Shown: in pieces, positions 10,437-13,222 of the stretch
How positions within the stretch are numbered: position 1 is the stretch's first letter
How the letters are laid out: each line of letters begins with the position of its first letter
DNA from: Yuukianura sp. NJ FZ-2021
Lineage: Eukaryota
Direction: 5' to 3'
Length of the DNA stretch: 64,000 nt
NCBI GenBank assembly: GCA_046563655.1
Contig: CM102288.1
Location: 2,232,001 to 2,296,000, forward strand
Notes under the pieces: generated by a model
Databases searched by the model: none
What the model was told of the DNA's origin: nothing
The model's input: only the letters and a program-made list of their open reading frames with translations
Program-made: the position numbers and the translations under genes

Positions 10437-10904
10437 CACTTAACTTTTTTGGAATTTCGAAAAGTTAACAAACGCTTTTTAGAAATTAAACGTTTTTAGA
10501 TAATCTGTAATGTTAACAAGCAAATTCCAAACGAAAATTTGCGCTAAAACAAAATCCTTCCAGAAACTCTTAAACGTCGTTCAGTTTTTTTAAATTCGAA
10601 ATTTGTCAAATTCAAAATTCTGTTTAGTTTTTCTTCGGTCAGATCAGAACAAAATCAGAACACGATTCAAGTCTACAATTGACATTTCTGTTTAAAAAAT
10701 TTACTTTAGCTTGATTCAAAATTAACTTTAACTTGATTCTTTTAAAAACTCGGTCTTAGTTATTGTTGACGAGATTCAATTTTATTGAGTTTTAGCTCTG
10801 GAATTAAAACAGTCACAAACTTGAAATTTTTTTTCATGGATAGTTGGAGAAGATTCTAAAATTTTCTAAAAAATTTCAAAAAATCAGGCTTTCTCTGCTG
10901 TAGT

Positions 10905-11292
10905 TTTGTACTAAAACGTAAACTTTGGAATGCTTTGACTAGATTGCTAAAATTTTAAAATTTCTAAGCTTTTTAACACTAAATTAACCTAAATCTAAAT
11001 CATAATTTGTTGTGCATTTTAGTGTTTTTAATTACAGTGATTTTTTGGACGGAGGTTTTTCATTTTCTCTGGTCAGCATTTTCATGACTAGACTTAAAAT
11101 TTAAGTTATTGCACTTGACTCGGACGGAGTGCTTTCACTTTAACAATTTGACACGAAAATCTAACTTTCACCTGACAATTAACCTAACTTTTTAAATAGC
11201 ATTAATTTTTAATTAATATTTTAGCTAATGTTGCTGGACGGACGTTTTAGTGTGCCCTGTGTGCGTAAATTCATGCTTTTTGTGCTGGACGG
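10905..11292 (-). promoter_or_regulatory. Cluster of microRNA seed-match sites in the putative FoxJ1-like 3' UTR
   Basis: Minus-strand TCCGTCCA/TCCGTCC/CCGTCCA x4 (miR-184), TCTAGTCA x2 (miR-279 family) and GTGCAATA (miR-92/310 family), all downstream of the stop at 11380. Minus-strand AATAAA at 10781-10786. Confidence 0.6.
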
Positions 11293-11379
11293 TTACAGTT
11301 GTTGAACTTTAGGCTTAATCTTTAGTATTACAAAGGTCAGAGATCAACTTCTAGAAAATGAGGTCAGAGGTCAAGGTTT

Positions 11380-12242
11380 TTAGAGAATGAGATTCCAATC
11401 GACAAGATCCAATTCAAAGACGCGTTCTCCATCCCAATCCAGTGTCCATTCTTGACAGATTTCAAATTCCGTGGGAACAAGGGCATCAGTTGCAGCGATT
11501 AGTGGCTCAGCAGCGATTAAGGATCCGACAGTAGTTGGAGTCGATCCCATTTCAACTACGCCCAAACACTGCTGTCCATCAGGAGAAATCGTTTCTTCGC
11601 GCTCGACGCGCGGTTTTTTGACGCGCCGTTTCCTCAATCGGTAGAATTTCTCACCTTTTCGTAACTTATCTTCACAGACTGGATCCAATTTCCAAAAACC
11701 GCCTTTGCCTAGAAACAATTGAGGTCAAAACGTTAGTGTTAAGTTGAAATTCTTGTTGTTAGGTTTGACCTCTGACCTCTCCCGCCTCGGGCGACTCGCA
11801 TAAAACATTTGTTGAGACTTAAATTGTGTCGAATGGAGTTCATCCAAGCCAAAGCCTCTTTGCCAGATCTAGTGTCGTAAAAAGTAAAAGTGTTGCGAAT
11901 CCATTTGTAGATTCCTGAAAGTGGTAGTGGGCCTGGAGATGAATGCAGCGCCAGCAGAATCAGCGTTGCGTAACTCAGAGGTGGACGAACGGTAGGATTT
12001 GCCCTAACAATTTTCGTAATTTTGAAACGTCAAGATTTTAACAATTTTTGATAATTTCGATGCTATTTTGGACAATTTTTTGAAAATTTTCAAGTTTACC
12101 TGCTCTTTTCGAGAACTGCTTGTGCTTTGTTGAGGATGTAATCAAGCGTTTTCTTGCCCGAACGCTGCGGAGGTTGAAGATCACGAGAGACGTCGTGATT
12201 AATCAACCAATTGAGAGGGAGGAGGTCGTCTTCTTGGGTCAT
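11380..12242 (-). CDS. FoxJ1: Forkhead transcription factor, FoxJ1-like (232 aa)
   Basis: Exons 12242-12100, 12003-11777 and 11708-11380 join in frame: DDLLPLNWL (cf. FoxJ N-terminal L-x-W-L motif)...NPTVRPPLSYATLI...LSGIYKWI...WMNSIRHNLSLNKCF...GKGGFWKLDP. SYATLI, IYKWI and GKGGFW are FoxJ1-type. Largely missed by the ORF track. Confidence 0.85.
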
Positions 12243-13222
12243 CGTGTACTAGGGAAGGAAGAGAGGTCAGGAGAGGTCAAGTGAAGGAACTAAGTGACTA
12301 ATAGGAAGAAATGGAGGAGAGAGGACACGGTGGACCAGAAGTTTGACAGAAAGAAGAGGCCTTTGACTCCTGGTGGTGGTGCTGCAGGATTAGAATAAAA
12401 ATCGGATTCGGTGGAATTCGGTGCGGGTAGTTTTCCACCTGCCCGGAAGTATGTGGAGAGGCAGGTGAAATTTCTATTGTATTCTAAAAAATCAATTTCA
12501 AAGTGTCCATGCGTTCTAAATCCATTTGGAAATGACAAAGGAAAGCCTCTTTCCCCTCTCCTTCTGCAAGATCTAAAAAACCGATATTCGGATTTTCAGA
12601 GAGAACAAAGGAATAGTGTGACTCAACATCACACTGAATCACAGGGGGCAGAACGTAATTGCATGTCTAGTTATTTAGTTAATTATCAAAATTCAATCAA
12701 AATTTAAAAATTTTGACACCAACTCGTTTCGTCTTGAAACCAGACAATTCAAAACCCAAACTACGAATAACACTACACTTCGGTAAATCCACTCGATATT
12801 TAAATTCCGGCGTGAAGACTATGCAGTTTATAAAATAAAATTATGAAAAATACAATCTAAGGTCAACCGTTTGAAAAGTTTTGTAAAAGATTTTTAGCCA
12901 ATTTGAGAAAACTGAGTTTTTCAAAATGTTCAAAAAAATTTGTGGAATTTTATTTTTCGTGACGATAAGAGAGTGACGCTTTCAAAACGGAGGCGGGGCA
13001 AAATAACGGGATTTTCAAACAGGCGCGAGTTTTGAAAGGAAAAATTTGAGGAATTTACGAAGATAAAAGAACTGTTTTTTTCTCTTCCTTTCGTCATTTG
13101 TTTTTGTTGATCGTGATCAGCAGTTGATCATTGATTTATTCTTATTGGCTAGTTAATTGTAATTAAGTTTGCTCTAATTAGCTAATTAATTAACTGTTGC
13201 TTGAAACTATAAAGAAGCAACA

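Follow-up and report, generated by a model that had tools for sequence, protein, structure and literature searches.

Four copies of the word CCGTCC lie packed into a span of about 250 nt downstream of a divergent forkhead (Fox) gene in the window, by which is meant the whole 64,000-nt stretch of DNA analysed here, and with a probability of roughly three in four they form a selected cluster of target sites for the microRNA miR-184 in the Fox 3′ UTR. The predicted control is very probably of the canonical seed-match type, a textbook mechanism on a new target. The features on which this reading draws are given below by window coordinates, with the distance in nucleotides past the Fox stop codon marked by a plus sign; L001 is a metagenome contig with an orthologous locus.

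10436 (end), plus strand: rhomboid-domain gene, convergent with the Fox gene
10781-10786, minus strand: AATAAA, +594
11027-11032, minus strand: ATTAAA, candidate poly(A) signal 14 nt past the last site, +348
11046-11053, minus strand: site s1, TCCGTCCA, miR-184 8mer with C opposite miRNA position 9
11107-11114, minus strand: GTGCAATA, miR-92 family seed 8mer adjoining s2, conserved at L001 1911-1918
11122-11128, minus strand: site s2, TCCGTCC with G as the next base, miR-184 7mer-m8 with C opposite miRNA position 9
11208-11213, minus strand: ATTAAA between s3 and s2, +167
11235-11242, minus strand: site s3, TCCGTCCA, miR-184 8mer
11286-11292, minus strand: site s4, CCGTCCA preceded by A, miR-184 7mer-A1, 88 nt past the Fox stop
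11708-11380, minus strand: Fox exon 3, stop TAA at 11382-11380, 81% identity to L001 over 108 residues
12003-11777, minus strand: Fox exon 2, most of the forkhead domain (Pfam PF00250, E 1.5e-22)
12242-12100, minus strand: Fox exon 1, ATG at 12242-12240; start and exon junctions the same in L001
13223 (start): CIR-type gene

A word search of the window finds GGACGG on the plus strand at 11047, 11122, 11236 and 11287, always in one orientation. Read in the sense of the Fox gene, the four sites are located 88-334 nt 3′ of the stop codon (TAA, 11382-11380). Each of the four is a canonical seed match: the pairing covers miRNA positions 2-7 and is extended by a match at position 8, by an A facing position 1, or by both. 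The site classes were assigned against the miR-184 sequence printed in Table 5 of PMC6814974, and they agree with those proposed in the sequence-only reading (8mer, 7mer-m8, 8mer, 7mer-A1), which had also placed the four words correctly, in their single orientation and at the right distances from the Fox stop. Its description of the flanks as mostly unrelated is accurate too, with one further base in common to s1 and s2 (CTCCGTCC). On inspection by hand, no 3′ supplementary pairing to miR-184 is evident at s1 or s2.

As printed in Table 5 of PMC6814974, Drosophila melanogaster and Ixodes scapularis have the same 22-nt sequence of miR-184, from which the human and mouse forms deviate at the final base alone. 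Among the literature matches listed, the species with the exact 22-mer include insects, ticks, mites and a snail. miR-184 ranks third in abundance among the miRNA hairpins of Daphnia magna (PMC6828783) and is named among the most abundant miRNAs in Rhodnius prolixus (PMC10423254); what these three sources state agrees with the earlier claim of a miRNA that is conserved and abundant in arthropods. The source of the window is treated here as a springtail-like hexapod: one of its exons, from UBE4B, has its best match (67%) in the protein of the springtail Orchesella cincta. For miR-184, springtails can be regarded as bracketed by Daphnia magna and Rhodnius prolixus. No report of miR-184 in Collembola, Folsomia or a springtail was found in the literature searched, and an Rfam scan of the 64-kb window at gathering scores returned 0 matches.

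The enrichment of the word is local. Over the whole window and both strands there are 16 copies of GGACGG/CCGTCC against 9.5 expected, a count reached by 5 of 100 shuffles, and at this scale the word is not enriched; the 12 copies outside the cluster are single and stand in unrelated contexts. The intergenic stretch tested for local enrichment, 10437-11379 (943 nt, GC 0.296), runs between the stop codons of the convergent Fox and rhomboid genes. Here, three or more copies occur in none of 20,000 dinucleotide shuffles, and two copies in 11. A comparison of CCGTCC counts with dinucleotide-shuffled sequence had been put forward as a check when the cluster was first noticed, and its outcome favours the cluster, with 0 of 20,000 shuffles reaching three copies in the window stretch.

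A second locus allows the word to be followed in another species. A metagenome scan with the protein of the C-terminal Fox exon as query gave 446 pattern matches and three confirmed loci (L001-L003). L001 contains the Fox orthologue: 202 of 226 aligned residues agree, the three exons and the stop position correspond, and the convergent neighbour is again the rhomboid gene, whose stop lies at 2468-2470. Neither of the other two loci is an orthologue: the exons of L002, a canonical FoxJ1-type gene in an unrelated metagenome record, are different ones, and L003 reaches 35% identity over 47 residues.

Of 93 fourfold-degenerate sites in identical codons, 32 have the same base in the window and L001; unrelated sequences would be expected to agree at 23.2. 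The first 360 nt (window) and 340 nt (L001) past the stop codons, when aligned globally, score no higher than shuffled sequence (z 0.58), and 88 of 300 shuffles do equally well. Neutral divergence between the two is near saturation, and the downstream stretches are globally unalignable. A global MAFFT alignment of these regions being uninformative, they were compared by shared words and local alignment. Past the Fox stop in L001, CCGTCC is found at +107, +180, +249 and +253, all Fox-sense (span 107-258 nt), reading cTCCGTCCA, cTCCGTCCA and aCCGTCCGTCCg, that is, two 8mers and an overlapping 6mer/7mer-m8 pair. Neither four copies of CCGTCC nor three of TCCGTCC are reached by the L001 downstream stretch in any of 10,000 shuffles. 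This enrichment is an independent test, because the choice of the word preceded the retrieval of L001, which went through the protein alone. Conservation in related species, the other check put forward with the original observation, thus has a positive answer from a single orthologue, which keeps four CCGTCC words in the same orientation (0/10,000 shuffles). When all six- and seven-mers with at least two copies in both stretches are scanned, CCGTCC, TCCGTCC and CCGTCCA come first by a wide margin; the joint Poisson tail for CCGTCC in this unbiased word scan over both UTR stretches is 1e-14.

What the two stretches have in common is concentrated at the sites. Eleven ten-mers are common to both intergenic stretches, and nine of them overlap a seed site or its immediate flank; the others are AGTGCAATAA, adjoining s2, and one near the rhomboid stop. 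The flank of s4, GTCCAGCACAAA (11279-11290), is identical in L001 at the same distance from the stop; the site together with its flank, AACCGTCCAGCACAAA (+86), corresponds to AACTGTCCAGCACAAA in L001, where the site at +88 is CTGTCCA, a G:U wobble variant. s3 has CGTCCGTCC in common with the L001 site at +249/+253, followed in both by a block of 76 columns that is 68% identical. s2 shares the 13-mer AAGCACTCCGTCC with the L001 8mer at +180, after which AGTGCAATAA follows in both, and by these shared words s2 and the +180 site form a clear orthologous island. s1 has CCTCCGTCCA in common with the L001 8mer at +107. Two sites have both flanks and position in common between the window and L001, and the order of the s1 and s3 counterparts is not collinear between the species. 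The changed order, together with the weakening of one site to a G:U pair, therefore points to rearrangement or turnover in which the number of sites is maintained.

Over the eight core words of the two species, the footprint consists of T in 6/8, CCGTCC in 8/8 and A in 5/8, and the bases beyond are variable. Three of the eight sites have G instead of A opposite miRNA position 1, and at four an additional C faces miRNA position 9. All eight carry an A seven bases upstream of the core, a feature unaccounted for by miR-184 pairing. In both species, all eight words are Fox-sense and lie 508-856 nt from the rhomboid stop. Relative to the flanking UTR, the seed matches are preferentially conserved in the one orthologue compared.

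For the sites to act on the Fox mRNA, they need to be included in it. In the L001 locus, AATAAA occurs in Fox sense at +208 and +322. In both species there is no AATAAA or ATTAAA before the first two canonical sites, and there is one shortly past the last site. Hexamers in the rhomboid sense are located at +49 and +367 (window) and at +391 and +454 (L001) from the rhomboid stop. The simplest reading of these signals is a Fox 3′ UTR of ∼350-370 nt in which every site is included, perhaps alongside a shorter isoform with the proximal sites only; through use of the proximal hexamer (ATTAAA at +167 in the window, AATAAA at +208 in L001), some isoforms could lack the distal sites. Folding of the Fox-sense RNA is not strong (z −0.52 to +1.33).

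Seed words of two other miRNAs occur in the same stretch. AGTGCAATAA, which spans the miR-92 match, is located at +265 in the window and at +203 in L001; miR-92 sequences beginning UAUUGCAC are printed in PMC6053560. The conservation of GTGCAATA could reflect a miR-92 site or, in L001, the overlapping AATAAA. The word TGATCTC at 11340-11346 on the minus strand, 34 nt past the Fox stop, is a 7mer-m8 match to the seed of bantam (sequence as printed in PMC6053560). No counterpart was seen by eye in the L001 downstream stretch, and this match may be chance.

The gene that carries the sites has GT..AG introns of 96 and 68 nt and encodes a protein of 232 aa. FoxJ1 and Drosophila Fd3F are regulators of motile-cilium genes, as described for example in PMC3555814, and the window protein resembles them in having a forkhead domain, which appears to group with FoxJ1-labelled proteins. 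The forkhead exon has 2661 relatives. Among the best 120 of these, identity is 48-59% and the named ones are mostly labelled FoxJ1, with a few labelled J2, G1 or other; the hits labelled J2 or G1 are about as similar to the Fox domain as the FoxJ1-labelled ones. In a domain tree of 31 sequences, made up of the window and L001 proteins and 29 others hand-picked among the best 120 to span the labels, the window/L001 pair has a very long branch (2.63 changes per column) and falls within the side of a 94/85 split on which FoxJ1 proteins dominate. A GKGGFW motif after the third helix is common to the window protein and the canonical FoxJ1-type gene of L002. The C-terminal exon has no relatives among proteins of 190-2000 aa and belongs to no Pfam family. 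Its 108 residues (11383-11706, minus strand) end in EFEICQEWTLDWDGERVFELDLVDWNLIL, a tail identical in L001, and this part of the protein can be described as a lineage-specific conserved tail.

Unlike FoxJ1 and Fd3F, the window protein is short, at only 232 aa, with at most 59% identity in the domain, a long branch and a tail that has no relatives among longer proteins, and it is therefore not a clear FoxJ1. By these features it appears as a divergent, fast-evolving FoxJ1-class factor rather than a clear FoxJ1 orthologue.

The surroundings of the gene contain further conserved or repeated DNA. A block 165-276 nt upstream of the Fox ATG (12407-12518, minus-strand sense) shares 67% identity with L001 across 129 alignment columns (E 7e-12), and the rest of the 600-nt upstream stretch gives short weak matches only. 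The block contains CTTCCGGGCAGGTG, which we take to be an ETS-like core with a CAGGTG E-box, and GAATTCCACCGAA; it likely serves the Fox gene as promoter or enhancer. Direct repeats of the DR1 type, AGGTCA-N-AGGTCA, number 18 in the whole window (at most one mismatch; 8 perfect), where 0.24 would be expected; the count of GAGGTCA is 46 and its expectation 6.4. AGGTCA is a nuclear-receptor half-site. The flanks of the repeats are unrelated, and the repeats are therefore free-standing motifs and not a repeat family. Around the Fox gene they are found at 11334-11373 (plus strand), 11766-11778 (minus strand) and 12263-12279 (plus strand), one of them within the first 20 nt past the stop; L001 has none at the same stringency. 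On the other side of the intergenic stretch, the words TAATTTCTA and AAGCGTTTG stand directly past the rhomboid stop in both species (window 10469-10490; L001 2424-2452), and the final 39 rhomboid residues differ at one position between the window and L001. These words are probably elements of the rhomboid 3′ UTR.

Enrichment, strand bias, position and conservation together show a selected RNA-level element, [T]CCGTCC[A], and not its reader. The CCGTCC words could thus be sites in the Fox mRNA for some other trans-factor, an RNA-binding protein or a small RNA that shares the core, with the match to miR-184 being coincidental. The invariant A 7 nt upstream of the core, for which miR-184 pairing gives no reason, would be in keeping with such a factor; we know of no RNA-binding protein with this motif. 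Against it stands the shape of the element, an 8-nt footprint with T on the position-8 side and A on the position-1 side as in a canonical seed match, and half of the sites extend it by the C facing position 9 of the miRNA. By chance, a selected 7-mer would match the seed of one of the ∼65 conserved insect miRNA families (PMC10423254) in well under 1% of cases. An 8-nt footprint and exact seed identity with a conserved, abundant miRNA therefore make miR-184 far likelier than another RNA-level reader, which we consider unlikely.

Less probable again is a function at the DNA level, in which the words would be transcription-factor sites in a 3′ element that enhances or silences either the Fox gene or its convergent rhomboid neighbour. 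The stretch does lie between two convergent genes, with other dense DNA motifs (the AGGTCA direct repeats) around the Fox gene, and the conserved upstream block indicates conserved regulatory DNA at the locus. Transcription-factor sites are usually free in their orientation, however, whereas all eight core words have one orientation and are found close to the Fox stop in both species. GGACGG, moreover, exactly matches the seed of a conserved miRNA, and we know of no arthropod factor with a GGACGGA motif.

It is very improbable that the plus strand is the functional one, as a set of miR-184-like hairpin genes (it reads TGGACGGAG, the 5′ end of the miRNA) or as elements of the rhomboid 3′ UTR. 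The first 7-9 bases of miR-184 do occur four times on this strand, on which the rhomboid gene also ends (10436), but the identity to miR-184 ends after these 7-9 bases, there is no Rfam match, and the sites are 616-856 nt from the rhomboid stop, past the rhomboid-sense ATTAAA at +49 and +367. Eight folds of 121-131 nt, covering both strands, have z from −1.54 to +1.33; those of the plus strand range from −1.54 to +1.30 and contain no long stem with the word. A miRNA gene on the plus strand was rejected, the folding and Rfam results being negative and no hairpin of the expected ∼60-80 nt having been found. Chance or a decayed local repeat, to which we give an equally slight probability, is already close to refuted. 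In its favour, the sequence-only reading had not fixed the word beforehand, 134 six-mers have at least four same-strand copies per 250 nt somewhere in the window, and s1 and s2 do agree in one base beyond the seed. Against it, only three of the 134 hold five G/C letters (GGTGGG, CCCACC and GGACGG), three copies are never reached in 20,000 shuffles, and the word, by then specified, is enriched again in the independently retrieved L001 (0/10,000), with unrelated flanks.

In the case of a miR-184 target cluster, we infer that the Fox mRNA includes the sites, that the host makes miR-184 and that repression occurs. A miR-184-loaded Argonaute would use miRNA positions 2-8 to pair with as many as four sites in ∼250 nt of a weakly structured, AU-rich UTR; the bound complex would then repress translation and destabilise the mRNA. 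Given the abundance and broad expression of miR-184 in other arthropods, the Fox factor would be kept off or low wherever this miRNA is present. The proposal that miR-184 clamps a FoxJ1 programme agrees with these data in part: there are seed sites, in the sense of the gene, enriched and retained in L001, but the gene is not a clear FoxJ1. The canonical FoxJ1-type gene of L002 has no CCGTCC in the 1393 nt past its predicted stop, and a general link of miR-184 to FoxJ1 genes is therefore not supported.

Canonical multi-site targets of animal miRNAs include lin-41 and hbl-1, with their let-7 sites. The Fox gene is like them in that a developmental transcription factor has several seed matches to a conserved miRNA in its AU-rich 3′ UTR, with sites that are preferentially conserved between the window and L001 while their flanks drift; unlike the let-7 pairs, the pairing of miR-184 with a FoxJ1-class gene is a prediction from sequence. 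Drosophila miR-184 reportedly has germline and embryonic targets, as described by Iovino, Pane and Gaul in 2009, and to our knowledge these include no forkhead gene. The present case has the same miRNA, an invariant seed and a developmental regulator as the predicted target, in a host that, unlike Drosophila, is a springtail-like hexapod. In vertebrates, miR-34/449 controls multiciliogenesis, and FoxJ1 is not known to be the direct target there; a conserved miRNA acting on a motile-cilia programme would be common to that system and the predicted miR-184 case, and the miRNA and the targets differ.

No described link between miR-184 and FoxJ1 was found in the literature searched, where no paper that names both does so in its title or abstract and, in those with the most mentions, the two stand in separate gene lists; among the papers listed for fd3F, chordotonal or sperm flagellum in connection with miR-184, none contains miR-184. 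The earlier statement that such a link was not known to be described is in line with this search.

In abundance and conservation miR-184 is among the foremost animal microRNAs, yet few direct targets of it are established outside Drosophila and mammals, and the Fox gene would supply a concrete pair for a non-insect hexapod, in which the target is a lineage-specific FoxJ1-class regulator whose dosage evidently matters. Four sites kept by selection in two species whose neutral sites are saturated amount to about the strongest computational prediction that two genomes allow. If the Fox factor acts in ciliated sensory neurons or sperm, a ubiquitous miRNA would be tied to the control of the motile-cilium programme. 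A wider and more speculative proposal, possible although we hold it doubtful, is that in springtails, and perhaps in hexapods more widely, miR-184 through four sites and miR-92 through one conserved 8mer gate a fast-evolving FoxJ1-derived factor that specifies the cells with motile-type cilia, either chordotonal neurons or sperm. If this were true, one of the most abundant arthropod microRNAs would be a switch restricting the motile-cilium programme to a small number of cell types.
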